From sequence record SRR20825006_316: 33,281 bases of DNA. The stretch is one strand, 5' to 3'. The notes below the pieces were generated by a model. The model worked only from the letters and a program-made list of their open reading frames with translations, was not told the origin of the DNA and made no database searches. The first letter of the stretch is position 1, and each line of letters begins with the position of its first letter. The position numbers were made by a program, and so were the translations under genes. Below, one piece after another: positions 6,571-26,094 of this stretch.

Positions 6571-6677
6571 ATCCGGCCAGCGTTGATGCCAAGCGTCACG
6601 TCCGGCGCCTGTCTCTCAGGCTTCGGTACAGGCTCAGGCTATTAGATCTGTATGACAGTAGCGTTGCAGATGCTGAC

Positions 6678-7838: not shown

Positions 7839-7894
7839 AAGGTCTCTTTCCTCACCTGGGAACTCACTGCCTGTTTGCGCTCACATGTTTATGT

Positions 7895-10728: not shown

Positions 10729-11240
10729 TGCACCAGCACCCTGGTTTCGCCTTCAGCTGCATCCCTCAGGCTGGCGCCAAGTTTGCCCGCCAGATGCTCA
10801 CACGCTTCGCGCACGGCTCCCATACCGCCTGAACGCGCGGTAATAAAGTGCGCCAAGGCTTTCACATCATCCACAGCGTTCGCGGGCGCTATCGCGTACC
10901 CACAGGCTGCCATGGCGGCCATGTCGATCAGGTCATCTCCCATGAAGGCAACCTGATCAAGCGGGAGATCAAGCTCCGCACACAGCTCAGCCAATGCCCG
11001 AACCTTGTCCGCGCATCTGAGCCTGCGGTGCGTTATGCCAAGGTCGTCCAGCCTTCGCTCAAGCGGGCTACTGGTACGGCCGGAAATGACAGCCAGTTCC
11101 ACACCCAGTTTGTGCAACAGCTTGAGGCCAAGCCCGTCGTGCGCATGGAAGGCTTTGCTCTCTTCCCCATGGGCTGCGTAATAAAGCCGCCCATCGGTCA
11201 GCACACCGTCTACATCCAGCACAAAAAGGCGGATCGTCAT
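10725..11240 (-). CDS. kdsC: Kdo 8-phosphate phosphatase (HAD, KdsC/YrbI)
   Basis: LDVDGVLTDG, FMGDDLID and GGMGAVRE motifs. Lies between kdsA and kdsB. Confidence 0.93.
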   Translation of the reverse strand: MTIRLFVLDVDGVLTDGRLYYAAHGEESKAFHAHDGLGLKLLHKLGVELAVISGRTSSPLERRLDDLGITHRRLRCADKVRALAELCAELDLPLDQVAFMGDDLIDMAAMAACGYAIAPANAVDDVKALAHFITARSGGMGAVREACEHLAGKLGASLRDAAEGETRVLVQ

Positions 11241-11244
11241 TGCG

Positions 11245-12087
11245 TTACTCCGTCACCAGTGGCGGGAAGCTTTTGGAAAGATCATCAACCGCCTTCATCT
11301 GCACAAGATAGCCTTCAAGCTTATCAAGGGGAAGGGCGCACGGGCCATCGCACAGCGCCTCGTCCGGGTTGGGGTGTGCTTCAATAAATAGCCCAGCGAT
11401 ACCAAGCGCCATACCAGCACGCGCCAGTGCGGCTGCCTGCTCGCGCCTGCCGCCGGCGCTATCGGTTTGCCCGCCGGGGCGCTGCAACGCATGTGTGGCG
11501 TCAAACACTACCGGCGCCATGGTTTTCATCAGGTCCATGCCCAGCATGTCCACAATCAGGTTGTTATAGCCAAAACAACTGCCCCGCTCGCACAGCATCA
11601 CATCCGCATTGCCGCTTTCGGCAAACTTTTTGATGATGTGCCGCATCTCTTCCGGCGCCAGAAACTGCGGTTTTTTCACATTGATTACCGCGTCTGTAGC
11701 CGCCATGGCACGCACAAGGTCTGTTTGCCGCGCAAGGAAGGCGGGCAACTGGATCACATCGGCGACCTCAGCCGCAGGCGCGGCTTGGTCAGGCTCATGC
11801 ACGTCTGTGATAACCGGTACACCGAATTTGGATTTGATGTCGGAAAGCAAACGCAGGCCTTTATCCAGCCCTGGCCCCCGGAAGCTATGCACACTGGAGC
11901 GGTTCGCTTTATCAAACGACGCCTTGAAAACATAGGGAATGCCAAGCCTTGAGGTGACCTCAACAAAATGCGCTGCCACTTCAAACGCAAGCTCATCGCT
12001 CTCCAGCACATTCATACCGCCAAACAGAACAAAGGGAGCCTCATTTGCAACCCGAATGTTTGCGCCGATAGAGACAGAACGAACCAT
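11245..12087 (-). CDS. kdsA: Kdo 8-phosphate synthase
   Basis: [29 protein letters not shown] and [14 protein letters not shown] motifs. Confidence 0.97.
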
Positions 12088-12227
12088 GCTTTCCCCCAGA
12101 AGTCTTATAGGAAACCTTTGAAATAGTGATAGCCATGGCTACCCCGCGCAGGTCCAAAGCGCAAGGTGGTTTTACCCCCACAACCTATATAACCCCGAAC
12201 TAAAACAGGGGCTGTTGCCGGGCGGCA

Positions 12228-13055
12228 TTACCTGAAGAGGGAAAGGATCGAAGACGGGCTTTGGTTCGCGATGGAAAGCGCCTGCAGGCCAAGCTGCTGT
12301 TTCACCTGCAAGGCTTGCAGGTTTGCCGCCTCTTTGGCGAGGTCTGCGTCCACCAGATTGCCGATGCCAACTTCAATGGTATCCGAGAGTTTGGCGACAA
12401 ATGACTTCTGGATCGCAATGCGCTTCGCCCCCGCACCAAACTGAGACAGCACAGAGTTTACGCTATCAATGGCGGCGGCGATTTGGTCAACCGCCACAGA
12501 CGCCGCCCCCTGGCTATCAATCACTTGTGTGGCGCTGAGGGATACGTTTGAACCGCCAAGCGAAAGATCCTGCGCGGAAATAGCGAGGTTTTTATCCCCG
12601 CTTGGGTCCGTGATCGCACTGATGGAGCGCCCACCCGATTTAACCGCGTTCACGCCGTTAAATTCAGCATTCTCGATGATGGAAGATATCTGGTCCCTGA
12701 GCTGGGCAAAATCCTGGCTGAGCGCGGCACGGCTGGCTGTATCAAGCCCGCTATCTTTTGCGGCCACGGCCTTTTCTTTCATCTGAATAAGGAGGTCAGA
12801 CACCGCTTCGGCCGCCGCGATCGCCACATCAAGGCTGGAGCTTGCCCGCGCGAGGGAACCCTTCACGGCGCTGAGGCCGCTTACATCTGCGCGCAGATTT
12901 TGGGCAATAGCAAAGGTAGCCGCGTCATCTTTCGCGGAGGAGACCTTGAGGCCTGTGTTGATGCGTGTCTGCACCTCGCCAAGCATTTTGTTGGTTTTGT
13001 GCAGGTTCTGAAGCGCAACAAACGCGCCCGCATTAGTGTTTACCGAGTAAGACAT
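12228..13055 (-). CDS. Flagellin (short, Caulobacter-type)
   Basis: N-terminal SVNTNAGA...RINTGLKVSSAKDDAA and C-terminal GNLVDADLAKEAANLQALQVKQQLG...ANQSPSSILSLFR. Confidence 0.96.
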   Translation of the reverse strand: MSYSVNTNAGAFVALQNLHKTNKMLGEVQTRINTGLKVSSAKDDAATFAIAQNLRADVSGLSAVKGSLARASSSLDVAIAAAEAVSDLLIQMKEKAVAAKDSGLDTASRAALSQDFAQLRDQISSIIENAEFNGVNAVKSGGRSISAITDPSGDKNLAISAQDLSLGGSNVSLSATQVIDSQGAASVAVDQIAAAIDSVNSVLSQFGAGAKRIAIQKSFVAKLSDTIEVGIGNLVDADLAKEAANLQALQVKQQLGLQALSIANQSPSSILSLFR

Positions 13056-13151
13056 TCTGCCTTCTTTCAGCCCTATAGGCCCATACCCAATTCAGAGTAT
13101 ACCACACTCGCTCATCACCAGTAGCGTGAAAGTGCGCGGCCTATCTGGCCG

Positions 13152-13907
13152 TCACGCGCTTTCCACCTTATTCTTAAGTGGGTCAGGTCGTCGTTCCATC
13201 GGCTGGATATCGCAATCCAGATCAATAGCAACGTTTTCTGACGCAACAAGCGCTATCATCAACTGGTGCTCAGGTACAAAATGAAAGTAAATCATGGCAT
13301 TTTCACGGCCCTTTGGCGTGGGTGCCGCAAGTTTTGGTGGCCGGGCAGTCAAATCCACCTGAATATTGCGCAGGTAAGGCATCAACTTGCCGTCTTCCAT
13401 CTTCACGAATGCCTCACGGATAGACCAAAGCGTGAAAAACAGCATGCGGCCAATCTCATTCGACATGTTGGATAGAAGCACCCAGTCCTCTGGCGGGAAA
13501 CGGCGTTCCGCCACCCGACGCCAATCTACCACCGGGTCAAGCTGCTGGATATCAATGCCGATAGGCGTGGTCTCAGAGACCACAACGGCAGAAATCCCCT
13601 CCTCTGCCGCCCCGGTATGGGAGACAGAGAAGAAAGGCGGTTCATCATCTGAGAAACCCTCAATGCGAACCCTGCCCGCGCCTTCCTGGGTGAGCGGCAC
13701 GGCGCCCGGCAGCAAGCCCATATATTCACCAAGGGATGCCCTGAGCATACGGCGGGCGGTGACAAACGCAGGCCGCGCACCTTCATGCATCCTGGCGAGG
13801 CGTTCGTGCTCAGTTGCAGACAGGTCTTCCTGGCCTGAAAGCGCCGGGTCTGCTGCCCTCACCTTCAAGGTCACCGTCTCGCGCAACTTGTCTTGCTCGT
13901 CAGCCAT
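13152..13907 (-). CDS. Sfp-type 4'-phosphopantetheinyl transferase
   Basis: FSVSHT, IGIDIQ and WSIREAFVK (variant of GxDxE / WxxKEAxxK). Confidence 0.8.
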   Translation of the reverse strand: MADEQDKLRETVTLKVRAADPALSGQEDLSATEHERLARMHEGARPAFVTARRMLRASLGEYMGLLPGAVPLTQEGAGRVRIEGFSDDEPPFFSVSHTGAAEEGISAVVVSETTPIGIDIQQLDPVVDWRRVAERRFPPEDWVLLSNMSNEIGRMLFFTLWSIREAFVKMEDGKLMPYLRNIQVDLTARPPKLAAPTPKGRENAMIYFHFVPEHQLMIALVASENVAIDLDCDIQPMERRPDPLKNKVESA

Positions 13908-14045: not shown

Positions 14046-16463
14046 CTAGAAGGTATAATCGACTGTTGCGAGGTTTGCGGTTGTGAGGCCAATGAGGAAG
14101 ATGCTGTCGCCGCCGCCGGTGTCGATCATCACGCCTGCTTCACCACTCACCGTTGTGTTTGTGGCCGCTGCCTGCACACTTGCCGCTGAGGTAAAATCGG
14201 TTGTTGTGCCGCTCAGGTCCAGCAGGTCATTGCTGGTACTGAAATCTGTGACCACATCGTCACCATGGCCTGAGGTGAAGATAAGCTCATCACTTCCACC
14301 ACCGGTGTTGATCTCGTCGTCCCCCGTGCCGCCGGTGATGGTATCATCACCAGAGCCGCCCCACAGCTCATCACTGCCGGAGCCGCCGTCAATCACATCA
14401 TCTTCCGTGCCGCCAAAGATAAGATCATCCCCTGCATCACCAGAGACACTATCATCCCCCGTGCTGCCATAAACACTGTCGTTGCCGGCGCCGCCAGAAA
14501 GGGTATCCCTGGCGTCTGATGCCACACCCTTGCCGCCATACACCCGGTCATTACCACCAAAGCCGTATACAGCGTCATCCCCCGGCCCGCCGCGCACAGT
14601 ATCAGCGCCGCCGCCGCCATAGACAAAGTCGTCTTCAGAGCCACCCCACTGGAAGTTATCGCCATCACTTGCCGAGGTAACAATCTCATCCACTTCAACC
14701 ACCCCGTCACCGTCGTCATCCCATGACGTGCCGATCACGGTATCGTTGCCGCTGGAGCCATACATCACATCAGCCCCGTTCTGGCCAACGCTGTTTGACG
14801 AGAAGAAGGAGGCGTCAGCCCCGTCACCGATCAGAAGGTCAGCCCCGTCCCCGCCACCGATATAATCATCACCTTCATCACCGCGCACGGTGTCATTACC
14901 GTCACCACCTGCGTAGATGCGGTCATCCCCCGATCCGGCTTCGGCGATATCGTCACCGTCATTACCGCGCAGGAAGTCAGCCCCTGAGCCGCCATAAAGC
15001 GTGTCATCACCCTCGTTACCACGCAAGGTATCATCGCCCGAGCCACCGCTCAGCATATCGCCACCAGCCTGACCGCGCATGTTGTCGTGCCCGCCGCCGC
15101 CGGTGAGTACGTTTGCAGCGCTATTGCCGGTAATTCGGTCACTGCCCGACCCACCGATAGCGTTCTCGATCGTAACCTCAGGTGGCGTGTAAACGGTGTC
15201 TGTCTTCGCGGAATTTGGGCCACCGTCGCGGTAGAGCGTGATGGTGGTGCCAACATCGCTCCAGCTACCGGGGGTCAGGTCAAGGTCGAGGCCTGTGGTT
15301 TGGGAGGATGCGTCATAAGTATCTGTGCCGCCCGTGTCCCAAATGGTTTCATAATACTGGGTGCCATTACTGAAGGTATATGTGGTGTTACCCACCTCAT
15401 TTTCCGCCTCACCATACAGGTGCTGAAGCGCGAGGATATCAAGATACATGTAGCTTGTGGGGTAGAAACTCGCGCCTGCAATATCTTCATCTTCAATGGA
15501 GACATTGTATGACATCACCGTATATTCCAGCCCGTCATACGCTGACGAAAGGATAACGCCGGAACCATCGTCATCAAACGGGTGCTTGAGCCCCATCGCG
15601 TGGCCAAGTTCATGCGTCAGCACAAGCTGAAAATATGAACCACGGCCTCCGGTTGACTGATTCTCGCTCACAATCCATATATCGCCTGCGGTGACCGTGC
15701 CGTAGGGCGTGTAAGCGTATGCCGCCGAATCTGCATCGGGTTCGTCTGTCCAGGTTACTCGGATGGTCCCTGCTGATGAGGTGTTATCATCTACCTCCTC
15801 AAAGGTAACTGCCGCGAAACTTTCGATCTGAGACAGGGCATCTTTGAAAAGGTTTTCTTCCGATGTCGTCAGGAAACTGATGCCATTCCAGGGTTCGCCG
15901 TCACCGTCCTCAGGGCCATAACCGCCATTTGACGATGTTGACCACGCGCTGGACGCGTTTGGAAAACTGTAGGTGACGGTCGTTGTCGCCGCGCCCAGAA
16001 CGTTCTGGTAGCGGAACAGATCGAGAAGGCTGTCTACCCTGTCGTCACCCGTGATATCCACCTGATCCACCACCGCATTGGTGGTTGGCGACGGGGCTTC
16101 CGCTTCATATTCTTCAAGCGATATTTGATACGTGCCGGTCTCGGTTTCCCAACCACCCGCTGAGACATAATAGGTACCGCTTGTGTTGGGCGTGAACACC
16201 AGCTGGCTGTTGCGGCTTCCAGCACCGTCATCGTCAAACCGGTTCAGGGAGGTGCCGCTGGCGTTATAGAGCCCCTTGATGAAAGGGTCGACAAGGGTGC
16301 CGTCACCAATTGTTGAGCCCGTCATCTGGATGGCATAGGTCACACCCGCCTGCAGTGTTACTGCAACCCAGTCTTCGTCGCCTGCTACCTCGATCTCACC
16401 ATTATAGGTGCCACCAAACGCCAGCGTTGCTGTTGTGCTTGTATTATTGGGAACATCAACCAA
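14046..16463 (-). CDS. Serralysin-like M10B zinc metalloprotease with N-terminal PPC-like domain and RTX Ca2+-binding repeats
   Basis: HELGHAMGLKHP (HExxHxxGxxH), TVMSY Met-turn, TIWDTGGTDT, TIENAIGGSGSD and many GGxGxD nonapeptides. TTG start with upstream GGTGAGGG. Confidence 0.92.
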   Translation of the reverse strand: MVDVPNNTSTTATLAFGGTYNGEIEVAGDEDWVAVTLQAGVTYAIQMTGSTIGDGTLVDPFIKGLYNASGTSLNRFDDDGAGSRNSQLVFTPNTSGTYYVSAGGWETETGTYQISLEEYEAEAPSPTTNAVVDQVDITGDDRVDSLLDLFRYQNVLGAATTTVTYSFPNASSAWSTSSNGGYGPEDGDGEPWNGISFLTTSEENLFKDALSQIESFAAVTFEEVDDNTSSAGTIRVTWTDEPDADSAAYAYTPYGTVTAGDIWIVSENQSTGGRGSYFQLVLTHELGHAMGLKHPFDDDGSGVILSSAYDGLEYTVMSYNVSIEDEDIAGASFYPTSYMYLDILALQHLYGEAENEVGNTTYTFSNGTQYYETIWDTGGTDTYDASSQTTGLDLDLTPGSWSDVGTTITLYRDGGPNSAKTDTVYTPPEVTIENAIGGSGSDRITGNSAANVLTGGGGHDNMRGQAGGDMLSGGSGDDTLRGNEGDDTLYGGSGADFLRGNDGDDIAEAGSGDDRIYAGGDGNDTVRGDEGDDYIGGGDGADLLIGDGADASFFSSNSVGQNGADVMYGSSGNDTVIGTSWDDDGDGVVEVDEIVTSASDGDNFQWGGSEDDFVYGGGGADTVRGGPGDDAVYGFGGNDRVYGGKGVASDARDTLSGGAGNDSVYGSTGDDSVSGDAGDDLIFGGTEDDVIDGGSGSDELWGGSGDDTITGGTGDDEINTGGGSDELIFTSGHGDDVVTDFSTSNDLLDLSGTTTDFTSAASVQAAATNTTVSGEAGVMIDTGGGDSIFLIGLTTANLATVDYTF

Positions 16464-16677
16464 AACCAGACCCTCACCTTTTGGGTATTCAGCCGCCGCC
16501 CAAAGGGCTGACCATCACAGTTCATCATTGAATAGCAGGTGGCATGCCTGTCAACTGCCTAATGAGAACTCTCTATACCTCCGCCACCTTCACCTTATAC
16601 GGTCGCCGCTTAAAAAAACGTTGCCGATCCTGGATTTTTTAACAAAAACACGCCCTTTTCAGGGCGGGCAGTAAACG

Positions 16678-16704
16678 AAAAAAAGCGCCGCCCGAAGGCG
16701 GCGT
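16678..16704 (-). terminator. Intrinsic terminator of the RTX protein gene
   Basis: Minus strand ACGCCGCC-TTCG-GGCGGCGC followed by TTTTTTT. Confidence 0.85.
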
Positions 16705-16758
16705 CATAGTTGCTCTTAAGGGGGATCAACCTGCCTCGGATAAGCCTGGGTAGCGACC

Positions 16759-17832
16759 TTAGTAGATCACGTCCAGATCGTGCAGTTCATCCCATGATAT
16801 TCCTGTCAGGAATATGCTGTCGCTCGCTGTCGTCTCAATCACCACGCCCCATGTGCCGCCCACATAAGCGTCGTATGAATAATATTCCAGGTCGTCGAGA
16901 TCATCGATATCACCAACCCCGCTGAGCACAAGCGTGTCTTCGCCGATATAGAAGTCTTCAACGATGTCATCACCGTCACCGTCACGGAAGATGAAATAGT
17001 CCTCGCCATAACCGCCATAGATGATGTCATCGCCCGCACCGCCGATCAGGTCGTCGTCTCCATCATCACCCCAAAGGGTATCCCAGCCCGAACCGCCATA
17101 GATCAGATCGTCACCACTGTTGCCAGTAGCAACATCGTCACCGGAGCCGCCATAGATCGTATCGTGGCCACTGCCGCCGAACAGATCGTCCCAGCCGGAA
17201 CCACCGCCCATGCGGTCATTGCCCGAGCCACCATATATGTCGTCATCGCCGGAGCCGCCCCAGGCCGAATCGTCACCGCTGCCGCCATCAATCGTATCGT
17301 AGCCTGTGCCGCCAAAAAGCCGATCGTCATCGCCCCAGCCAAAGATGTCATCATCGCCTGAGCCACCGCCGATGGTATCGCGGAAATTACCGCCGACAGC
17401 CACGTCATCCCCAGAACCACCCCAGATTTCATTCTCAGGGGCCAGCGTAAGATTGCTACTGGCGATCGCTTCGCCCGACACAGCCTCACCAATGTCATAC
17501 TTGCCGTTGTCGTTCACGCGGCTATCATCCCAGCCACCACCAATGAGCGTGTCGTTTCCCCAGCCGCCGATCAGCGTATCACGGCCCTCATATTGCGGCG
17601 CATCGGGCACAACCGCCACAAAGAAGTTGTCGTCGCCGTACCAGTCAATATCAAAATAGTAGCCGTCGTCCATGCCGCCGCCGATGATGAAATCATCACC
17701 GCCCGCACCTTTCAGCAGATCATCTCCGCTGCCGCCCACGAGGAAATCGTCACTCCATGAGCCCCGGAAATTGCTGTGTTCGCCCGAGCCGTTAAAAACT
17801 ATCCGTCCGTCTACAACATTATAAAAAGCCAT
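16759..17832 (-). CDS. Acidic RTX-repeat (hemolysin-type) calcium-binding protein, probable T1SS substrate
   Basis: About 15 GGxGxDxhx repeats, no signal peptide, typical C-terminal GDDIVEDF..GED cap. Confidence 0.88.
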   Translation of the reverse strand: MAFYNVVDGRIVFNGSGEHSNFRGSWSDDFLVGGSGDDLLKGAGGDDFIIGGGMDDGYYFDIDWYGDDNFFVAVVPDAPQYEGRDTLIGGWGNDTLIGGGWDDSRVNDNGKYDIGEAVSGEAIASSNLTLAPENEIWGGSGDDVAVGGNFRDTIGGGSGDDDIFGWGDDDRLFGGTGYDTIDGGSGDDSAWGGSGDDDIYGGSGNDRMGGGSGWDDLFGGSGHDTIYGGSGDDVATGNSGDDLIYGGSGWDTLWGDDGDDDLIGGAGDDIIYGGYGEDYFIFRDGDGDDIVEDFYIGEDTLVLSGVGDIDDLDDLEYYSYDAYVGGTWGVVIETTASDSIFLTGISWDELHDLDVIY

Positions 17833-17919
17833 TGGGTATCCCCCGGTAAGTGTCGTTTCATTTTATGCGAGGCAGTTATACCGCCATCTCCTTGTGTCAC
17901 CCTTATGGCAGGGGTCGCC

Positions 17920-17935
17920 TGAACCAAAAATGAAC
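17920..17935 (-). promoter_or_regulatory. Candidate OmpR/PhoB-family response-regulator box
   Basis: Direct repeat GTTCA-N6-GTTCA (11-bp period) on the minus strand, about 90 bp upstream of the RTX gene. Confidence 0.4.
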
Positions 17936-17970
17936 GTAGATGTATGGTTTTTGTTATAATCCAAAACGAC

Positions 17971-17995
17971 AAAAGCCCCCAAATAAGGGGGCTTT
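17971..17995 (-). terminator. Intrinsic terminator (possibly bidirectional)
   Basis: AAAAGCCCCC-AAATAA-GGGGGCTTT. Confidence 0.75.
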
Positions 17996-18091
17996 CATGG
18001 TCACAGCTTTATAAACTTGTCCTCGCAGGCCGTGATCGGCTCTTGAGCGTTAGACGGTGCTGCGCATTAAAAGGTTCGCAGGCACCCTATC

Positions 18092-18667
18092 CTATTTTGA
18101 GCGGCGCTTGTTGCGCATCGCGTCCCGTTCTGCGTCGGTGCCGATAAATTCGTCCACATCCATCACGCGCCTGAGCTCGTCCACCAGGCGTTCGAGCTTC
18201 CTGCGGTCTTCAAACCCGCGGCACCCCGTGTACCACTGCACAGATTTATTAATCTCTGCGGTACGCACCTCGATTGTCACCGTTGGGTGGTCTGTTGCCG
18301 GCATCTTGCACGACATGCGATCATAGGCGCCATCAAGCTCGGTGAATTTTTGCATTCTCAGGGTTTCAAGAACTTCCAGAAACTGCCCAACGCTGCGTTG
18401 AGCCAGATGCTGACCACTAAGTTTCGAGAATCGGTTCCCGTGGAAGGTGATACGCCCATCGCCCCTGATGGTCAGGTCATACACCGGGCAGGCACCAAAG
18501 CACGGGCCTTCGCTCAATTTCACATAATGCATTGGGCTTGGATCGCGCGCCACGTCACCCACTCCATCCGCCGCATCACTGGTGCCATCGCCACCGGTCG
18601 CGCAGGCAGCAAGCATTAAAGCAACCACCGTGACGGAAAACATCTTGGTATAACGTGAAAAACGCAT
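18092..18667 (-). CDS. Lipoprotein, DUF6438-like
   Basis: Lipobox LAAC. GPCFGACPVYDLTI.GDG and TDHPT motifs. Confidence 0.75.
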   Translation of the reverse strand: MRFSRYTKMFSVTVVALMLAACATGGDGTSDAADGVGDVARDPSPMHYVKLSEGPCFGACPVYDLTIRGDGRITFHGNRFSKLSGQHLAQRSVGQFLEVLETLRMQKFTELDGAYDRMSCKMPATDHPTVTIEVRTAEINKSVQWYTGCRGFEDRRKLERLVDELRRVMDVDEFIGTDAERDAMRNKRRSK

Positions 18668-18747
18668 GGCATATCCTTCCGCGCCCTATTTAGCACGAGC
18701 GCGAGGTAAACCAATGCAAAGTTTCACAAAATTTCACGCAGCCGCTG

Positions 18748-19287
18748 TCAGGCAACACGCATGTCTCGGACGTCAGGCACGCCATATCCAACATCAACAA
18801 AATAGCTAAAATGCATCTCACCGTTCACGATCGTGGTGGTATCGCCCAGCAGGCCATACATATGGCGGGCTGCGGCAAAATCAGTGATCGAGACAAGCTG
18901 TCGCCCGCGCTTGGATACAACAGGCAGATAAAGTGTTTCATGCTTCAACTTGTTGCCAGACGACTTCTCAAGCGTGCGGCTAACATGGATGCCGCAGGGC
19001 TGGTTAAGCGCCGCCAAAGCTTCCTCACACGACAGGTTCGCACCAAACTTGAGGCTCATGGTGCCGCTTGACGCGCCCACCACATTACGGCCCCATATAT
19101 GGTCAATTGCCGTACCCGACTGCACAACAACAAGTTCACCATGCTCACCGGCCCTCAGCGCCATAAAGCGCGAGGTAAGCGCACCCAGCCGCGACAACGT
19201 GAAATCAGCGCGGTCAGGCAAGCTGTCCGATGTATTAAATTCTTCCCAGATCGCGGCCAGCCGCGATGCGCCTCCCCCAAGGCTCAT
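18748..19287 (-). CDS. Stand-alone PAS_5-type domain protein (paralog 1, most divergent)
   Basis: W..LPDRADF..., SGTAID..WG, QPCG, ETLYLP and C-terminal FVDVGYGVP. Start placed at ATG 19287. Confidence 0.7.
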   Translation of the reverse strand: MSLGGGASRLAAIWEEFNTSDSLPDRADFTLSRLGALTSRFMALRAGEHGELVVVQSGTAIDHIWGRNVVGASSGTMSLKFGANLSCEEALAALNQPCGIHVSRTLEKSSGNKLKHETLYLPVVSKRGRQLVSITDFAAARHMYGLLGDTTTIVNGEMHFSYFVDVGYGVPDVRDMRVA

Positions 19288-19518
19288 TTCCAGTTTCAAA
19301 CGCAAACTCCATACACATACCAAACCAACTACCGGACCCCCGTACGGCGCTGCCAGCACACGGGCAGATTCGCTGATTTCCGCGCATATTATATTTCTGG
19401 ACTTCAGAGTCTAGGGACGGTTAAAATTTTATCTAATTTTGAGAATTTGTTTACCCTAATCACCACATCTGCTGCCAACATGAAAAATTAACGCGACACA
19501 CCGCCACATGCCCAATTC

Positions 19519-19533
19519 TTAACTTTTTGTTAT
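19519..19533. promoter_or_regulatory. Candidate CtrA box
   Basis: TTAA-CTTTTTG-TTAT (TTAA-N7-TTAA with one mismatch) in the AT-rich divergent intergenic region. Confidence 0.4.
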
Positions 19534-19643
19534 TATCCTGCTGCGAGAACAGAAGCGCACAATCTCACCTTAACGCGTGGCGAGTTGTCGCAAAAAAATC
19601 GTGCTACGCTATATGTATGTTCCCCTGTGTAAAGAGGTTCCCC

Positions 19644-20492
19644 ATGGACCAAGAATCCGCTCAGACCATCACCGACCAACCCGCAACACCGGCGGACAAG
19701 AATACACTCCCAAGTGGCCCCCGTATCCTTGTGGTGGAGGATAACCCGGTGATGGCCAGCATAATGGGAAAATTGCTTGGCCGGTTTGAAGCACGCTTTG
19801 ACGTTGTCGCCAACGGGCTGGAGGCTATTGATGCTGCAAAAGAAGCTGATTACGACCTTATCCTGATGGATATCCTGATGCCCACGCTTGGCGGTGTGCG
19901 CTCTACGCAAGCCATCCGCAAGCTCTCAAGCCACTATGAAAACATTCCGATCATTGCGGTCACCGCACGAGTGTCTGAGCGCGCCGAAGAAGAATACCTG
20001 GCTGAAGGCATGACCGGCATGATCAAAAAACCCATCAACCGGGTGAACCTGTCGGAAGCACTGCGCACCCATTTGGGCCTTGAGGAAAACATCCCCATCT
20101 CAATAGAAAGTGAAAGCGCCATTCATGACAGGGACGACCTTGATGCGCTTAACTGGGAGGTCTTTAACGAATATCGGTCATTGCTGGGGGACAGCTTTAT
20201 GGGCTTCCTCAAGGACTATCTGACCGTAGGGCCGAACATGCTGTCTGATATTGGAGATGCTATCACCGCAGATGATGCACCACGCATTCAGTTCCTCGCG
20301 CACAAGCTCAAATCAACCGCTCAGGTGTTTGGCGCAGAAAGCGCGGCAGATCTCGCCGCCCAGCTTGAGATCATGGGTAAAAATAACGAGACCGGCCCCG
20401 CCCCGCAGATATTTCATGAGCTTCATATCGCTTATGAACGCACTCAGCGCGCCCTGCGTAAAAAATATATCCTGATGCAGAACATGGGGTAA
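19644..20492 (+). CDS. Response regulator receiver domain fused to an Hpt domain
   Basis: ILVVEDN, LILMD (phospho-Asp), AVTA, KKP, and C-terminal LAHKLKSTA..FGA (Hpt His). Start at ATG 19644. Confidence 0.9.
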   Translation: MDQESAQTITDQPATPADKNTLPSGPRILVVEDNPVMASIMGKLLGRFEARFDVVANGLEAIDAAKEADYDLILMDILMPTLGGVRSTQAIRKLSSHYENIPIIAVTARVSERAEEEYLAEGMTGMIKKPINRVNLSEALRTHLGLEENIPISIESESAIHDRDDLDALNWEVFNEYRSLLGDSFMGFLKDYLTVGPNMLSDIGDAITADDAPRIQFLAHKLKSTAQVFGAESAADLAAQLEIMGKNNETGPAPQIFHELHIAYERTQRALRKKYILMQNMG

Positions 20493-20643
20493 GCGCGGTA
20501 TGGTTAATCAATTTTAACTATAAGTTGTAAATTAACCACCTTCAGTAACCATTCTTTTACAGGGCAGCCGCTATGCTGTGCCTATAAGAACATAATAATC
20601 ACCAACCACTTCGGGTGGGGCCACCATAAACCGGTGATTGGCG

Positions 20644-20951
20644 TTACCTGGTCCTGATGGCCACCCCACCCGGCTTTTCACTAGCTTGCAAACCCTTCAA
20701 AAGCGGCTTTTGACCCACGGCTGGGAAGCTATATCCGCCGCCCACTGATTTATGTATGGCCCGGGGCAACCACATAGATGAGAACAACCAGGCATAAAAC
20801 AGGTGCTCCGCCAGATAAGCCCCAGCAAGGTCAGCGAGAAAAGCGGCAGGAGCAATAACAGGATACTCAACACGAAGACGAGGCCATTCAGAAGTTTCGC
20901 TATATGGGGTTGGCAATGAACCCAAATATCAGCATGCTCCCATTGCCGCAT
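20644..20951 (-). pseudogene. Small membrane protein, apparently split by a frameshift (candidate immunity protein)
   Basis: One frame gives a TM stretch (GLVFVLSILLLLLPLFSLTLLG). A second frame continues with AYLAEHLFYAWLFSSMW. One extra G in the GGGG run (plus-strand CCCC 20820-20823) would join them. Confidence 0.35.
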
Positions 20952-21018
20952 TTGACCCCGTTTATTCTTCCTCAGCCTGAACCCGATTTATGTCAAAACC
21001 TGGGTAGTATCCGCAATG

Positions 21019-22674
21019 CTAGTTGGGTTTTCTCGCCCCCGCTTTCTCTAATAGGTTTCGCTCAAACGACGTGAAAAAATCAGGCTCCCCATCCACGGAG
21101 GCATTTCTTCCTCGTTGACTAAAATCGGCCCCAGCTTTCTCTAGCGCGACCGCCTTTTCCTCAACCTGCATTTCTATTTGTGCGAGGGCAGCATCCATAT
21201 TTTCAATGAGGATTGGACCGAAGGCATCCGCAATCTTTCCTCCAAGCATATGACCAAAGTAACCACCGAGAAACGCGCCTGCTACATATCCGATCAAGGC
21301 TCCGATTACTGCTCCCGCTTCCCCTCCGAAAAACGCCCCTATCCCGCCACCAATAACAGCACCTACATAACGTCCAACGATACGTAAAATCCTGGCACCG
21401 ATATCCTGCAACAATTCCTTCAGCGCAACCTGCACATAGTCCTGCCATTCAGATCCGCTACCAAGTAACAGTCCAATCTCAACAGCTAAAGTAGCTCTGC
21501 CCAAGCCTTCTGCAGCAGCGCCATACATCTTAAGTGTTGCAGCAATCTCTCGCTGCGTGCGAACGCTGGCAGCGGCAGCGGCGCTAGTGATCTTTGGTAG
21601 TTCTTTCTGAAGCGCTTCGTTCCATATTCTGGCGCGCCTCCTACGCCCCCGCTTTCGGCTTTCTGCCGGGTTTGCTATCCCCTCATCTTCAAGGCTTGCC
21701 TCCAGGTCTTTGATAACAGACCGCATATTTTCATCGAACTGTTCGAGCGTGTCCCTAGCTGAGGTCATAAAGCCGTTGCGGGCAGACATAATCACCCGAC
21801 GGTCCCTGCCCAACGTCTGTACGCCCACAAAGTAGAGACGCTCTATCGCTGTATTAACGGTAAAGCGTCGCCCCTGAAGGTCGCGCGAGAGTTCAGCTGC
21901 AAATGCCTTAACGGCCTTTTCACGCCCCAGAAAAACGTCTTCAATCTCAGATGCGGCATCACCTACAGCGCCAAAAGACGCAGCCACTGCATCGGCTGCA
22001 TTATTGGCCTTCTCAAGATCAACGAGAAATTCCATAGCAAATTGTTCAAAAGCCGAACGGGAGGGTTTCTGTAGCGCCGAAAATATGTTGGGCTCGCTTT
22101 TCTCGATGAGCCTCAAAAGGTCAGCCACCGCACGACTATCGGGCCTAATTAATGCTGTTCCAACTCTCGTCAGTGAGCGCCCGAACAAGTCCTGCTCATA
22201 AGCGCCCAATATCTTGATAGAGGCCGAGAAATTTGGTTTGAATGATTGTAGCCCAAAAATTTTCAAGAACCGGTTGCTGGGAGGTTGTGGTTTCGAACCA
22301 CCAAATGAAATAATGGGTGGGGAAAACTCTTTTTCTCTCAATTTATTCCAGCGCAGCTTGAAAAAAAGCGTGGCAACACCGGCGGACAATTCCGCTTCGG
22401 AAGCAATTGCTCCCTTAACCGCTTGCGCATCTATAACAGCTGCTATTCGCCGCCCGGAGGCGATAGAGAAATCCTTTAATTCAATCAATATACCCTGTTG
22501 ACCGGCCAGTTTCACAATAGCTAATAAAGCACGCTCTTCTCTCTCAAAGAGAAGTGTCTTGCCTTTTAGGCGACTAATCTCCCTAGCGCTGTGGCGAATA
22601 GACTGCGAAAGACTGGAGACAGGTATTGGCGTGCTTGTCCAAGGGACATTTACCATTCTCACCGCAGCACTCAC
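21019..22674 (-). CDS. Large helical hypothetical protein with C-terminal glycine-zipper hydrophobic hairpin (pore-forming-toxin-like)
   Basis: About 551 aa from the GTG at 22674, preceded by GGAGGGA. C-terminal VGAVIGGGIGAFFGGEAGAVIGALIGYVAGAFLGGYFG. Confidence 0.7.
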   Translation of the reverse strand: MSAAVRMVNVPWTSTPIPVSSLSQSIRHSAREISRLKGKTLLFEREERALLAIVKLAGQQGILIELKDFSIASGRRIAAVIDAQAVKGAIASEAELSAGVATLFFKLRWNKLREKEFSPPIISFGGSKPQPPSNRFLKIFGLQSFKPNFSASIKILGAYEQDLFGRSLTRVGTALIRPDSRAVADLLRLIEKSEPNIFSALQKPSRSAFEQFAMEFLVDLEKANNAADAVAASFGAVGDAASEIEDVFLGREKAVKAFAAELSRDLQGRRFTVNTAIERLYFVGVQTLGRDRRVIMSARNGFMTSARDTLEQFDENMRSVIKDLEASLEDEGIANPAESRKRGRRRRARIWNEALQKELPKITSAAAAASVRTQREIAATLKMYGAAAEGLGRATLAVEIGLLLGSGSEWQDYVQVALKELLQDIGARILRIVGRYVGAVIGGGIGAFFGGEAGAVIGALIGYVAGAFLGGYFGHMLGGKIADAFGPILIENMDAALAQIEMQVEEKAVALEKAGADFSQRGRNASVDGEPDFFTSFERNLLEKAGARKPN

Positions 22675-22892
22675 TTGGTCTCCCTCCATTTTTCGCGGCT
22701 AACACCCTTCAGTTTTTCAACCGTACGCAGGCCGCCAAGCCCGAGCATGGACAGAAGCACGGTCATCAGGGTTTCTGTGCCTGCAAGCTGCGGCGGGGCG
22801 GGAATGTGCGGGAAGAAGGCAAGCCGGGCCCAGTTAAACACATCATGGCCGATGAAATGCCAGCCCAGCGCGATGCCACAAACCCAGCCCAC
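22671..22892 (-). pseudogene. 3' half of a 3TM holin (GTA_holin_3TM-like), N-terminally truncated
   Basis: GWVCGIALGWHF...LMTVLLSMLGLGGLRTVEKLKGV matches the conserved holin C-terminus as I recall it. The expected preceding 'GWRP' and N-terminal half are absent, and the upstream lipoprotein stop lies about 25 bp away. Confidence 0.7.
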
Positions 22893-22917
22893 AAGCTTTA
22901 ATTTACGTTTTTCGTAA

Positions 22918-23730
22918 TTATTTTTCAGGATAGTCTTTTTCCATTATTTCTATAACCGCAGCCATCAACTCGTGGCGCTCTTTACCCGCAAAGGACCCAT
23001 CGGTCAGAATGTACGGCAAACCAATCTGGTATTTCGAATTCATAATGAAACTTTTGGTGTATCTGTTTTGCCCGACAAAATTCTCCGCAGGCATTGTCGC
23101 GGCAGAGCTGTAGCCAAGGTGATAATAGTGCCCACGATTGATGCAGGAAACTGCGGCTTTCTGCTCTTCCCGAGAAGCCTCGTCCCGCATGTCAAAAGCA
23201 ACCAATACCAATGTTTTCTGGATTTTATAGCCGTCTGTCAGACGTAGCAGGGCACAGCGATCATTGTCTGAAAAGACAGCCTGCTGCAGTGCGGATGCGA
23301 AGGAGCTTTCCCCTAAAAAGGGAACAAGGATGTCGCGGTGCTCGCTCAATTTTTCCGCGTTGATATCATCAAGACCAAGGAGAAGCAGTTCAGCTTCAGC
23401 TGGGGCTCGAATGTCTACGAAAAAACGAGTAGAGAAAAACTGTCTGAGCCGGAATTTCACCGGATTAAATAGTGGCCGATCATCGCTGACCGTACCCATA
23501 TATTTTCTTGGTATTATGTTAATCAAGTTCGCACGGTCCACAATGCTGTAATACCGACTTGATGCACTCGGGAATGCCATCTCGTCAAACAACCGTGCTC
23601 TATGCACTCCCTCTTCCGGCAAACTGGAGCTGGCGAGCATGTCTTCGATCGCTTTATCGCTGTTTCTGTCCTCCACCGCACCGCAGGCGGCGGTTAGCAC
23701 CAGTACCAACGGAAGGAGGAAGGCGCGCAT
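22918..23730 (-). CDS. Hypothetical lipoprotein (weak DUF2927-like resemblance)
   Basis: Signal peptide and lipobox MRAFLLPLVLVLTAAC. C..(x)n..SCINRGHYYHLGY segment. AT-richer codon usage. Confidence 0.7.
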   Translation of the reverse strand: MRAFLLPLVLVLTAACGAVEDRNSDKAIEDMLASSSLPEEGVHRARLFDEMAFPSASSRYYSIVDRANLINIIPRKYMGTVSDDRPLFNPVKFRLRQFFSTRFFVDIRAPAEAELLLLGLDDINAEKLSEHRDILVPFLGESSFASALQQAVFSDNDRCALLRLTDGYKIQKTLVLVAFDMRDEASREEQKAAVSCINRGHYYHLGYSSAATMPAENFVGQNRYTKSFIMNSKYQIGLPYILTDGSFAGKERHELMAAVIEIMEKDYPEK

Positions 23731-23846
23731 TATGCCGCGCGCTACGTAGTTATCTGAAAAGGTCATACCTGAGCCGTGTTCTGTTTTTCCTCTACCAACG
23801 GTAGATAGAAATCGCGCTTACTACAAGAAGTACGATCAGAACGCCC

Positions 23847-24779
23847 CTAGTTTCCGCCGCGCCGGGTTTTTGCCTCACTGTCGCGGGGGTCGGGGTGGGC
23901 ATCGTGGCGGGCCATGATGGTGTCAAAATCCGTGCGGGCGTCATCGTCCAGCCACTCCCGGTAGAAGCGCCGGTGGGCAAGCCGCACGTCCGCCGCAATT
24001 TTGTTCACACTTTCGACCACGGCCGCACCGAAGGCGGATTTGTTGCAGCCCACATAGTTCTGCAGGAACTCGGGCTCCCCCGCGATGGGCAATGTGAAAT
24101 AGCTGTCGGCTTCATCCAGCTGCCGGAAGCGGTAGGCGGCTTCAAACGCAAAGGCAAAACCATAAGAGATGCGCCCGCGGGCGATCAGGGCACCCAGGCG
24201 GGGGTCCACCAGCTCCACCTTGCCCTCTGCGCGGGATTTGTCAGCCAGCAACCTGTTGATATTGCTGCTGTAAAACCGCCCGCTATCAACCCCGTAGAGG
24301 AATTTACCCGATGCCAGCAGGCGCGGCAGGTCAATCTCCTCCGCGTTTGTCAGGTAGGGGTCAAATATGTCCCGGTTGCTTTTGAGGGCAATGACCCGGT
24401 TGGGTAGCACTTCAATCAGCGGCTCGGAAAAAGTGGCGTATTCCTCGCGCTCCGGCGTTTTGAAAAGCCCAAGATGGCAAGCGTTTTCGCGGGTGCGAAC
24501 CTCGTTATGAATGCGGGTGGCGGAGGTCAGTACCTTCAGGTGGTCATAATCCGGCAGGCGTGCATGCATATAGGAAATGGCCTTGTCCGCGAAGCCCTGG
24601 CCCGCATCTTCGCCCGTGATGATATGGATGGGCGGGAAGTTCTGGTAATACCAGCGAATGACCGGGCGCTCGGCTTCCTCGTCGGCGCGCGCTGTGAAGG
24701 CCGGGCCTATAATAAGCGGCGCCAGAAGCAGTGTTAAAAGAAGGAAGCGGGCACGGTGCAACATGGAATTCAGGCTCAT
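23847..24779 (-). CDS. Periplasmic solute-binding protein, TIGR02285-like (family 3 fold)
   Basis: Signal peptide ..FTARA, W.YQNFPPIHI.TG...GQG..D, KTPERE..A.FS, YVGCNKS..G. Confidence 0.8.
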   Translation of the reverse strand: MSLNSMLHRARFLLLTLLLAPLIIGPAFTARADEEAERPVIRWYYQNFPPIHIITGEDAGQGFADKAISYMHARLPDYDHLKVLTSATRIHNEVRTRENACHLGLFKTPEREEYATFSEPLIEVLPNRVIALKSNRDIFDPYLTNAEEIDLPRLLASGKFLYGVDSGRFYSSNINRLLADKSRAEGKVELVDPRLGALIARGRISYGFAFAFEAAYRFRQLDEADSYFTLPIAGEPEFLQNYVGCNKSAFGAAVVESVNKIAADVRLAHRRFYREWLDDDARTDFDTIMARHDAHPDPRDSEAKTRRGGN

Positions 24780-25038
24780 GGTGTTATCTGTTAGTGGGTC
24801 CGGAGCCAGCGTGTCAAACACCCAAAGCCCTCGCTGTTTTGCTATGCTTTACCACGGTGGCCGCGTGCTGCCTATGCTTGATCACCGGTCCGGGTATTAT
24901 ATGTTTTCATCTATAGCGCCCACGAAAAACAGACGGTTTTTCAGGCATATCTGGTGATAGAAACCTGTTGAAGTGAGAAAAAGCAAAAGCTTTTCTACGC
25001 ATCCTTGCACTGAAACACCCACTGGCTGAGTGATCAGC

Positions 25039-25100
25039 AAAAGAAAAGCCCGCCTCCGGAAATTAATCCGAGAGACGGGCCTATTCGGTCACTATGGCTA
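25039..25100 (-). ncRNA. Candidate ~60-nt sRNA ending in a strong intrinsic terminator
   Basis: Minus strand: TTGCTT (25134-25129), N17, CACCAT (25111-25106), then hairpin GCCCGTCTC-T-CGGA-TTAATT-TCCG-GAGGCGGGC and TTTTCTTTT. Confidence 0.45.
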
Positions 25101-25306
25101 AACCCATGGTGCAATACGGGCGGGCTTGAAGCAAGTCTTTTTTTATTAATTTTTATGAGTTTTCCCTAAGTTGATGCAATAGCTGATCTTACGGAAACAG
25201 GCGGCAATCGCAGCGCTACCAAGGCGGTAAATGCGGTGTCTGTTTTACCTGAAAAAAATACCCTTATCTCTCACGATGTTAGCGGGCTTAAAGCAACGCC
25301 TGCCCG

Positions 25307-25894
25307 CTACCGGTTATGGTTGAAATGCTCGAGCGTGCAGGCAGGTAGGCCGAAGCCTAGGTCAACAAACGCGGCTTCCCGTATGGTGGGCGGTATTCTC
25401 TCCTCACGGTAAGGGCGGGCGCTGTTTTTGCGTTTCTCACTCGCTTCCATGCTTTCTGCCGTGTTGGCCTCGATGTAGCCAACACCCAAGATATAACGCA
25501 CCTCGCCCGAGGCATCCGCAAGCGGCGCACCAAGCGTGTGAAGGTCATATATGCGGCCGCCATCGCCGGTTACCCGGCGCTTCACCCGTGCGGCACAAGG
25601 GTGCTGGCGATAGGCCTGCAGAAAAGCTTCAAAGTGGTCCCATTCGTCCTCATGCAGCCGGTCAAACAGGTTTTCGCCCGATACACGAAAGCTGGGCCGG
25701 GCTTCGATATCTGTGCCCAGCAGGCGGACCTCAAGCTTATACCTGGCTATATGCTCAGCCACAAAAAGGTTAGGCACCAACGCGGGTGCGAGTGTGGGGC
25801 TGAAACATGCCTTCGCTGGCACGTTGCCAACACTTTTGGGCAACGTCTTCCACAGCGCGATAAAATCTTGGAACATACGGCCCCCCGCGTCCAT
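25307..25894 (-). CDS. Stand-alone PAS_5-type domain protein (paralog 2)
   Basis: W..VPAKACFSP, VRLLGTDIE, HPCAA, LGAPLAD..G.VRYILG, FVDLGFGLP. Confidence 0.8.
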   Translation of the reverse strand: MDAGGRMFQDFIALWKTLPKSVGNVPAKACFSPTLAPALVPNLFVAEHIARYKLEVRLLGTDIEARPSFRVSGENLFDRLHEDEWDHFEAFLQAYRQHPCAARVKRRVTGDGGRIYDLHTLGAPLADASGEVRYILGVGYIEANTAESMEASEKRKNSARPYREERIPPTIREAAFVDLGFGLPACTLEHFNHNR

Positions 25895-26094
25895 ATAGCT
25901 CTCCGCCCGACCCCCATTTGCCGGTTGGCGCGAAGGGAGCTTAGCAGATCACCCGTAGAAGAAGAAGCACAACCATGCGCAGCCTTAAATGGCAGTTTTT
26001 AGCGGTTTTCTCGCGGGAGCTGTAGAAAAATGGGCTTTTAACCGCTTGTGGTTTTATGTATAGTTCGCCCCTAGGGGCAAAACGGGAGCATGTT

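Follow-up and report, generated by a model that had tools for sequence, protein, structure and literature searches.

The stretch of DNA considered here, 33,281 nucleotides of sequence record SRR20825006_316 (referred to as the window), belongs to a marine bacterium. On its minus strand, between positions 20,644 and 23,846, it carries a truncated holin gene, a gene for a protein of 551 or 556 amino acids (aa) with a long glycine zipper, and small open reading frames (ORFs); the features are compiled in Table 1. An initial annotation, made from the letters alone, had taken this region for a silent or exchangeable toxin-immunity cassette, whose half holin would serve as a recombination arm. Comparison with a conspecific genome and with a set containing one genome per species points to a different reading: the holin fragment is the remnant of a large deletion, and the gene behind it appears to occupy a polymorphic cargo slot. 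Taken jointly, these two statements are considered probable.

Table 1. Features of the holin-cargo locus in the window (all on the minus strand; positions are those of the window)
Feature	Position	Strand	Remarks
Lipoprotein-like ORF, 282 aa	22918-23766	minus	from the ORF listing; left chromosomal flank of the deleted cluster, outside the module
Palindrome TTACGAAAAACGTAA	22903-22917	minus	element preceding the promoter-like region of the particle cluster; retained in the window, the subsequent GCACCC... part is gone
Deletion junction, TTG (3-bp microhomology)	22892-22894	minus	relative to the conspecific genome G001, C1:2998810-3022732 (23,923 bp missing)
Holin stump, ORF of 73 codons	22671-22892	minus	residues 67-139 of a 139-aa holin of the gene transfer agent type with three transmembrane segments; two transmembrane segments and charged tail
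Shine-Dalgarno-like sequence GGAGGGAG	22680-22687	minus	within the holin tail, 5 nt ahead of the cargo GTG (22674-22672)
Cargo gene	21019-22674 (551 aa, GTG) or 21019-22689 (556 aa, ATG)	minus	LAS/M15-like domain, helical middle, glycine zipper
N-proximal cargo domain, aa 18-175	22165-22638	minus	predicted L-Ala-D-Glu peptidase (LAS/M15) fold, common to the "SVG" cargo family
Glycine zipper, aa 439-487	21229-21375	minus	12 GxxxG steps; predicted membrane hairpin
Small hydrophobic ORF, 84 aa	20697-20951	minus	from the ORF listing; strongly hydrophobic at aa 13-53
ORF of 93 aa	20644-20925	minus	from the ORF listing; overlaps the 84-aa ORF in another frame

The gene order lipoprotein, 3' half of a holin with three transmembrane (TM) segments, glycine-zipper protein and small membrane ORF, as given in the initial annotation, was reproduced. 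The same holds for the tetranucleotide GTGA (22671-22674), in which the stop codon TGA of the holin piece (22673-22671) overlaps the start codon GTG of the cargo gene, for the Shine-Dalgarno-like sequence in the holin tail, and for the three GC counts of 39/60 in the holin piece and 28/60 and 24/60 in flanking genes. Taken over whole features, the GC content amounts to 59.5% in the holin piece, 50.5% in the cargo gene and 48.9% in the lipoprotein gene, with 54.6% in the whole window, which is a modest contrast. Phage structural genes, an endolysin and an integrase had been reported as missing; Pfam scans of 33 ORFs of the window returned none of these, and the remainder of the window is ordinary chromosome, with genes for sulfate activation, for the synthesis of capsule and 3-deoxy-D-manno-octulosonic acid (KDO), and for flagellin, RTX proteins and regulators. 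The absence of phage genes is due to the loss of the particle cluster that once adjoined the stump.

The 73-aa product of the stump matched the PHROG holin family phrog_3427 (E-value, E, 1.2e-9), its residues 1-65 falling on profile positions 80-139 of 141, i.e., on the C-terminal half only. This match and the GTGA overlap bear out the view that the ORF is the 3' half of a three-TM holin, translationally coupled to the glycine-zipper gene. The fragment gave no Pfam match even at E ≤ 10 and no family in NCBIfam or PADLOC, and is thus not recognised by PF11351 as a whole protein. The genome G001, which has 100% of sampled 31-mers in common with the window, was used as conspecific reference. There, the frame of the stump remains open over 143 codons, and its product is a holin of 139 aa, which scored 58.4 bits with PF11351 (GTA_holin_3TM; cut-off 24.8) and whose 3' half is identical to the stump (residues 67-139). 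This intact holin is followed, with the same overlap, by a 100% identical 556-aa gene; in G001, the holin and the 556-aa protein each have a single match, which is situated here. A full-length counterpart in a relative, for which the initial annotation had suggested a search, does therefore exist.

Alignment with G001 showed the origin of the stump. Window positions 22893-26000 correspond to C1:2995702-2998809 of G001, immediately left of the cluster, and positions 17000-22892 to C1:3022733-3028625, both with 100% identity; G001 contains 23,923 extra bases exactly between window positions 22893 and 22892, and the alignment diverges precisely there. Both parental ends in G001 and the junction in the window have only the trinucleotide TTG in common, a microhomology of 3 bp, which argues for an illegitimate deletion and not for homologous or site-specific exchange between long repeats. 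The stump is the product of a deletion of 23,923 bp, which extended from just after the palindrome to holin codon 66; of this there can hardly be any doubt. Since identity to G001 is 100% on both sides, the deletion in the window must be very recent.

The deleted segment contains 28 ORFs in G001, 19 of which had PHROG matches: TerS, TerL, portal, prohead protease, major capsid, head-tail adaptor, tail terminator, tail tube, tail protein, a tape measure of 292 aa (phrog_13674, E 2.1e-27), distal tail, hub-like and J-like proteins, an M15-type endolysin, phrog_3108 and the holin. Searches with Pfam and NCBIfam identified a portal, protease and capsid of the HK97 type, Phage_TAC_11 (similar to gp10 of gene transfer agents, GTAs), Tail_completion_gp17, Peptidase_M15_3 and GTA_holin_3TM; an integrase, repressor or replication gene was not recognised among the 28 ORFs. 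In the undeleted locus of G001, palindrome and promoter-like region are followed by TerS, TerL, portal, protease, capsid, connector and tail genes, M15 peptidase, phrog_3108, the 139-aa holin and the 551/556-aa gene. Of 32 genomes of the genus surveyed, 28 contained a holin and 26 contained TerS; in 12 genomes both were on one contig, 21-27 kb apart, and the cluster always adjoins the same response-regulator genes. The palindrome TTACGAAAAACGTAA, followed by CTTGCACCC and a second motif, (G)TGCACCATAGG, precedes TerS in 15 of 27 TerS loci of the genus (L085-L108), and the palindrome and motifs look like the operator and promoter of the particle cluster. Judged from its genes, the pattern is that of a domesticated, vertically kept element similar to the GTA of Rhodobacter capsulatus (RcGTA).

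Several peculiarities of the cluster were recorded in passing. In G004, a genome of 76% completeness, TerS and holin are 11.8 kb apart (C30 164-12350), which may represent a shortened cluster. In G001 (L006), five ORFs without family match, three of them on the opposite strand, lie between protease and capsid (5482-8553), and a 1138-aa ORF follows the capsid gene (9952-13368), of which the last 43 residues alone match a virion-protein PHROG.

Both states of the locus occur in the same species. Ten sequencing runs contained at least half of the words of window positions 22500-23200, and four of them (X1, X2, X5 and X10) were compared at the junction. Contigs from X1 and X2, which belong to two studies, cross the junction with 0 differences, where X1 may be the source of the window itself. 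X5 represents the undeleted allele; two of its contigs depart from the window at 22892 and 22894, into the left end of the cluster and the 5' half of the holin. From X10, a seawater metagenome, a contig of 262 nt was obtained which is identical to the 3' half of the holin up to position 22893 and then continues with other sequence; these 30 loose letters match G001 exactly within the prohead protease gene (the 19 letters used in the search fall on C1:3002348-3002366). Read in this way, the contig, a single one of low depth, is a second independent deletion in the same species, of about 20.4 kb and with the same right endpoint.

The reverse course of events, an insertion of 24 kb into an older gene with two TM segments, was considered and rejected. 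At the junction common to G002 and G024, the promoter-like -10 box is situated 1 nt from codon 67 without start signals; furthermore, PF11351 covers the full-length holin.

Holin stumps are present in other species as well, and the point at which they begin is mostly the same. In G002 and G024 the stump, from codon 67 on, follows the promoter-like region, which is present up to its -10 box; G005 has an in-frame fusion of almost the entire TerS gene with codon 67, and in G012 and G048 the fusion is between TerS codon ~119 and codon 67. The stump of G011 differs, starting at codon ~113, 120 nt from a contig end. When G002 and G024 are counted as one event, G005, G012 and G048 as one or two, and the window and X10 as one each, at least four independent deletions (window, X10 and two species lineages) have the same right endpoint. 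The left endpoints are scattered over 3.5 kb; the right endpoints lie within ~3 nt of the boundary of codons 66 and 67, with microhomology allowed for. That four of five endpoints should fall in a span of 6 nt, out of ~340 possible positions, is far from chance (~3e-5 as a rough estimate, for stumps that were found by holin search, so that deletions of the whole holin are not counted; 4 of 32 genomes are without a holin match).

Several causes of the shared endpoint may be envisaged. Stalling at a hairpin is unsupported, since the DNA next to the shared breakpoint folds no better than shuffled sequences (z -0.37, -1.34 and -1.45). In-frame fusion as the cause was rejected, because the junction of X10 is out of frame with the protease gene. 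Selection for an intact two-TM core, which begins at codon 67, may contribute, but does not account for the precision at the nucleotide level in the two very recent events. There is also a small chance that codon 66/67 represents a programmed DNA end, e.g., the first cut of a terminase, and that the GTA repeatedly deletes itself, leaving a toxin export unit similar to type 10 secretion. Particles would then deliver fragments starting at codon 66/67; in the recipient, the right side of the fragment would recombine by homology, and its fixed left end would be joined illegitimately upstream, at 0-3 bp of microhomology, as in homology-facilitated illegitimate recombination. The cluster would thereby be erased and a release module of "mini-holin plus polymorphic effector" be left, by design or by selection.

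The stumps of the older deletion lineages allowed an estimate of selection. The proportions of nonsynonymous (pN) and synonymous (pS) differences were 0.068 and 0.595 for the stump pair G002-G024, 0.113 and 0.694 for G012-G048, and 0.059 and 0.581 for G005-G012. For stump pairs sharing a junction, the ratio of nonsynonymous to synonymous rates (dN/dS) was ~0.06, compared with 0.06-0.11 for pairs of full-length holins, all of these being values near synonymous saturation. The TerS parts of the fusions had pN/pS of 0.21-0.31, compared with 0.22 for an intact pair. By the flanking response regulator, G024, G011 and G002 belong together (76-84% identity) and G015 stands apart (62-66%), which is consistent with one old deletion in the clade of G002, G024 and G011. 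Provided that each shared junction is one inherited event, the sequences thus show that the two-TM core was kept by purifying selection long after the particle genes were lost; inherited junctions are the parsimonious reading, since the left endpoints show no site specificity. Of the deletion lineages, G002, G024, G011, G005 and G012 have an intact cargo ORF; G048 is without cargo.

In-frame chimeric ORFs of TerS and holin core, of 190-254 codons, occur behind the promoter-like region in L039 (G005), L040 (G012) and L059 (G048). Both halves of these chimeras have low pN/pS between species, and the product may be a domesticated fusion protein. Another side observation concerns G048, which contains two near-identical copies of a different prophage-like region (L060 on C2 and L061 on C6), each with a holin of 128 aa. 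This holin, whose tail is long and charged, begins at the starting point of the stump (...SWRPT|IGWICV...); the two-TM core thus exists also as a natural stand-alone holin.

The gene following the holin varies between species. Compared with G013, whose holin is 93% identical, the 556-aa gene of the window is a clean indel of 1.67 kb (window 22679 to 21004), which starts ~6 nt before the holin stop. Among 16 holins examined, those of G013, G009, G014 and G003 have no large gene behind them; the slot of G020 contains a 537-aa relative of the window protein with 20% identity, and most of the other slots contain proteins of ~465-615 aa, starting with a segment "SVGxxGxN...DVxxVQ". Thirteen slot proteins are 16-69% identical to each other, with conservation and alignability mainly in the first ~250 columns. 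The family of the 556-aa protein and the SVG cargo family are related to each other according to hhalign (94% probability, E 1.2e-7, window aa 34-167), and P0013, a family member, has the SVG segment ahead of a domain of the window type. Pfam searches with 14 slot proteins yielded two matches below threshold, PG_binding_1 (E 3.4e-4) and Phospholip_A2_3 (E 0.0022). The latter concerns the slot protein of G016 (L035 3138-4535; PF09056, phospholipase A2, aa 333-363) and is a hint that some cargo C-termini could be lipases.

Cargo relationships do not follow those of the flanks. The cargo of G024 is 69% identical to that of G015 and 24-34% to those of its clade mates, whereas its flanking response regulator is 84% identical to that of G011 and 76% to that of G002, compared with 62-66% to that of G015. 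The gene neighbouring the cargo, which encodes an exported or membrane protein, varies together with it (53% vs. 26-44% among G024, G015, G002 and G011); Pfam, NCBIfam and PADLOC scans gave no family match for these neighbours. This conflict indicates that cassettes were exchanged between lineages. From these comparisons the gene behind the holin occupies, with high probability, a polymorphic cargo slot, and the coupling of cargo to holin is conserved across the loci compared. The expectation of different cargo behind homologous holins, expressed in the initial annotation, was thus confirmed in the 16 holins and by the conflict between cargo and flanks; and the two absences that it had named as speaking against it, of an intact holin and of variable cargo, are not observed, since G001 has the former and the genus the latter.

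Profile searches with the SVG family in a collection of 5.8 billion proteins found at least 3 proteins. A search for related loci in genome contigs from alignment A2 gave 92 pattern matches, 0 of which were confirmed. Among proteins of the SVG type that are not near a holin, those of L075 and two more contigs of G069, and of L078 (G063), may be mentioned; in G069, one of them is adjoined by a 211-aa protein with a hydrophobic start.

The cargo protein of the window is rare. A word search found 2 proteins among 5.77 billion, and an exhaustive profile search 15 among 1.84 billion representatives at E ≤ 1e-3; P0001, from a public protein collection, is the 551-aa form read from the GTG at 22674. 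The 12 consecutive GxxxG steps (aa 439-483) make up the only strongly hydrophobic part, and a signal peptide is not evident at the N-terminus from the sequence. Pfam yielded weak matches to Gly-zipper and DUF6861, below cut-off; PHROG matches were to a tape measure (phrog_167, E 1.3e-7) and a tail-associated lysin (phrog_1047, E 9.7e-6); in sequence, the zipper resembles phage tape-measure and cargo proteins and, weakly, colicin A. Sequence matches in the PDB were confined to the zipper, namely the tape measure 9ki1_g (E 4.5e-6 over 50 aa) and colicin A (E 0.19), and PADLOC contained no matching family. In an alignment of 11 family sequences, W114, E165, L396, G443 and G471 are conserved.

Modelling of the whole protein with AlphaFold2 gave a mean predicted local distance difference test score (pLDDT) of 51.5, and the fold search was swamped by generic helical bundles. 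The N-proximal domain (aa 18-175), when modelled separately from 30 sequences, reached a pLDDT of 88.1 and a predicted template modelling score of 0.80. Structural alignment of this domain by VIA-align resulted in matches to PLY500 (2vo9_A; Z 8.4, root-mean-square deviation 3.3, 99 residues aligned) and LysB4 (6akv_A; Z 7.7, 98-99 residues), at 9-11% identity. Lower matches included DacB, VanX, the peptidases of RB49 and T5, and Hedgehog (Z 5.0-5.7), among which unrelated folds also occurred from Z 5.7 downwards; Foldseek returned nothing at E ≤ 1e-3 for the same model. The zinc ligands of LAS enzymes are a set of His/Asp/His. There was no M15 match in Pfam for the domain and no such set is conserved in the 30 aligned sequences, in which only L38 and W97 are near-invariant; for this reason, the modelled domain is probably a non-catalytic derivative of the LAS fold.

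The flanks of the module were also inspected. The 282-aa ORF has a hydrophobic N-terminus (aa 6-34) with a Cys right behind L-T-A-A, and is thus lipoprotein-like; it was assigned to no Pfam, NCBIfam, PHROG or PADLOC family. For the small ORFs of 84 and 93 aa no family was found in Pfam, NCBIfam or PADLOC, and coding status and role of the 84-aa ORF are uncertain. In G013 the small membrane ORF comprises 133 aa instead of the 84 aa in the window, the DNA being ~136 bp longer (window 20846-20857 vs. L026 5952-6088); this length is not divisible by three, which casts doubt on the frame in which the window's small ORF is read. Two RTX-repeat proteins (window 14046-17832), a serralysin-like M10 peptidase of 805 aa and a 357-aa repeat protein, are encoded 3-6 kb from the module, and RTX proteins flank the locus also in G005, G012 and G048.

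The region is the right-hand remnant of a chromosomally fixed, RcGTA-like cluster for head, tail and lysis. A mechanism may be sketched as follows. The signal-less cargo would be made together with the holin and reach the envelope or the outside through holin lesions; the glycine-zipper hairpin would insert into membranes and permeabilise them, in the manner of a lysis-linked effector or a bacteriocin-like protein, and the neighbouring genes would be candidates for immunity proteins. After loss of the particle genes, core holin and cargo would persist as a minimal module similar to type 10 secretion. By analogy with known toxins, the cargo may be a membrane-active effector, an assignment which is held tentatively.

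Likeness to known systems is partial in each case. With elements of the RcGTA type, the locus in G001 shares order and families of the head and tail genes (HK97-type portal, protease and capsid, GTA-gp10-like tail protein, short tape measure); G001 and its relatives also have the PF11351 holin and the fixed chromosomal locus across the genus without integrase. The G001-type cluster differs by its size of 22-27 kb with extra ORFs (the five between protease and capsid and the 1138-aa ORF), by the cargo gene coupled to the holin, and by having the lysis genes inside the cluster, whereas those of RcGTA are at a separate locus. Release of the R. capsulatus GTA proceeds via a classical holin-endolysin pair (PMC13236601).

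In type 10 secretion systems, cassettes of a holin and a peptidoglycan hydrolase, in some cases together with a spanin, release toxins or chitinases that lack a signal peptide, and the conversion of a phage lysis cassette to a release device is an established concept. Similarly, holin and M15-family peptidase in G001 adjoin a large protein without signal peptide; the cassette of G001 is, however, still part of a particle cluster, and release of its cargo is putative. The window contains neither peptidase nor holin residues 1-66, and hence no pair of holin and hydrolase. The hydrolase ChiX of Serratia is an L-Ala-D-Glu endopeptidase.

Polymorphic toxin systems are resembled insofar as the slot proteins have a common N-proximal part and divergent C-terminal parts. 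According to reports on TelE and EsxX, effectors of type VII secretion systems (T7SS), glycine-zipper C-termini are membrane-depolarising toxins, and the zipper is required for toxicity or translocation, as also in Tde1 from type VI secretion systems (T6SS). The window protein likewise has a C-terminal GxxxG run as its hydrophobic part; unlike these toxins, it has no LXG, PAAR or Rhs delivery domain and no T6SS or T7SS context, its zipper is unusually long (12 steps) and is situated behind a LAS-fold domain and ~250 helical residues, and no sequence homology to them was found. Operons of pore-forming colicins comprise a pore-former and a lysis gene. The locus is comparable in that a putatively membrane-active protein is encoded together with a lysis function and a small membrane protein as candidate for immunity, whereas Pfam Colicin did not match and receptor or translocation domains were not recognisable in the window protein. 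With the LAS/M15 endolysins (PLY500, LysB4, T5, RB49) it shares the predicted fold of the N-domain, but not a conserved His/Asp/His set, at an identity of 9-11%.

A number of observations weigh against the mechanism proposed above. The argument from purifying selection would fail if identical junctions had arisen independently and recently in each species. In the window, the stump starts at a GTG without evident ribosome-binding site, a sigma-70-like promoter is not present between lipoprotein gene and stump, the promoter-like region of the cluster is lost, and the M15 peptidase, the would-be partner of the holin, was deleted. The small ORF, a candidate immunity gene, occurs in G013 without the 556-aa gene. 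In other genera of the order, a genome may encode up to 3 proteins of the SVG type with the N-domain, none of them within 1.5 kb of a holin; the family is therefore not bound to holins. Modelling of the cargo protein was of low confidence over its C-terminal two thirds, in sequence the zipper most resembles tape-measure proteins, and the similarity to colicin pore domains is a lead only (Atlas scores of 0.86-0.87, compared with a bar of 0.9; colicin A at E 0.19; no match to Pfam Colicin, PF01024; the C-terminal model of low confidence).

Expression of the window copy deserves attention in this context. A scan of positions 20400-24000 gave 3 promoter-like sites, with 3.0 expected, and 4 terminator-like sites, none of them between lipoprotein gene and stump. 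The lipoprotein gene ends 25 nt upstream of the stump, and the window copy may be expressed solely by read-through from it, or not at all. With the promoter-like region, the peptidase and the N-terminus of the holin gone, the copy is possibly silent. The term "silent" used in the initial annotation could therefore be appropriate for the window strain; it does not fit the older lineages, where the stump is under purifying selection.

A rival reading is that the locus is simple debris, i.e., a decaying remnant of a defective prophage in which stump and 556-aa gene are without function and cargo variation reflects turnover of prophage "morons". The recent date of the window deletion, whose product was not yet tested by selection, would agree with this, as would the loss of promoter-like region and peptidase with no promoter predicted upstream, the tiny size of the 556-aa family, and the ability of G013, G009, G014 and G003 to manage without a cargo gene. 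Decay is nevertheless difficult to reconcile with the dN/dS of ~0.06 of stumps in older lineages at nearly saturated synonymous divergence and with the intact cargo ORFs there; moreover, most of the genus has kept the cluster, and at a single locus, and random decay would not be expected to give at least four independent deletions one common right endpoint. This explanation is regarded as rather unlikely.

The cargo could also be a late factor of the lysis cassette, disrupting the envelope or outer membrane or tethering peptidoglycan, which would replace spanins and have no role against other cells. Its position directly behind the holin and coupled to it, in a cassette with an M15 peptidase and without recognisable spanin, is suggestive of such a role, and so are the N-domain of an endolysin-type fold, the long and helical middle part, and the PG_binding_1-like beginning of many slot proteins (below cut-off in Pfam and for 1 of 14 proteins; the others are Atlas leads). 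Against this, the cargo has remained intact in lineages without peptidase and particle genes and is missing from several species with intact clusters, and extreme C-terminal diversity together with co-varying neighbours would be uncommon in a housekeeping lysis factor; in addition, the LAS zinc ligands are not conserved. A pure lysis accessory is thus judged unlikely.

The proposal of the initial annotation was that of an orphan cassette, in which the half holin is the recombination arm of a silent toxin-immunity unit that swaps cargo at an intact holin locus elsewhere. Orphan Rhs and contact-dependent inhibition (CDI) cassettes do offer a parallel, with a conserved upstream fragment, variable C-terminal or cargo sequence and variable neighbour, and evident exchange: the 3' end of the holin is very conserved while the downstream content differs between species, the conflict of cargo and neighbour with the flanks shows exchange of cassettes, and the indel in G013 starts at the 3' end of the holin. 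The exchangeable nature of the cargo was thus correctly foreseen, yet nothing shows recombination into an intact holin locus. G001 (where copies were counted, and not in the window strain) has one holin and one 556-aa gene at the same locus, without a second or full-length master locus elsewhere; the conserved fragment belongs to a gene of its own and does not form the 5' part of a toxin ORF, and it was made by deletion of the neighbouring 24-kb cluster; and the stumps of other species are situated at the original locus beside the same response-regulator genes. The arm model was therefore abandoned as quite improbable. Finally, that the 556-aa protein should be a tape-measure-like protein or tail-associated lysin of the particle, as its matches to phrog_167 (E 1.3e-7), phrog_1047 (E 9.7e-6) and PDB 9ki1_g (E 4.5e-6) could imply, is hardly credible, since these matches centre on the glycine zipper (50 residues of it in the PDB match), a separate tape measure of 292 aa is encoded at the usual position in the cluster, and the 556-aa gene sits after the lysis genes, not between tail assembly chaperone and distal tail genes, and is absent from species with otherwise complete clusters.

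The individual parts of the locus are of known kinds, namely a GTA-like cluster, a PF11351 holin, a LAS fold, a glycine zipper and holin-based release. In the parts of the literature covered by a narrow search, there was no description of a polymorphic cargo slot on a GTA-type holin, of its survival with a two-TM core, or of the common deletion endpoint. The cargo family would represent a new domain combination, of a non-catalytic LAS fold and an exceptionally long glycine zipper. Intact (G001, X5) and deleted alleles (window, X1, X2 and the X10 contig) coexist in one species, and the repetition of a single deletion endpoint may reveal a specific DNA end or a fragile site in such clusters. If the reading as deletion remnant with cargo slot is true, a domesticated GTA-like cluster carries a polymorphic, holin-coupled cargo slot, of which the two-TM core and the cargo outlive the particle genes. 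The genus would then provide a natural series from a phage lysis cassette to a device for protein release, which is the proposed origin of type 10 secretion.

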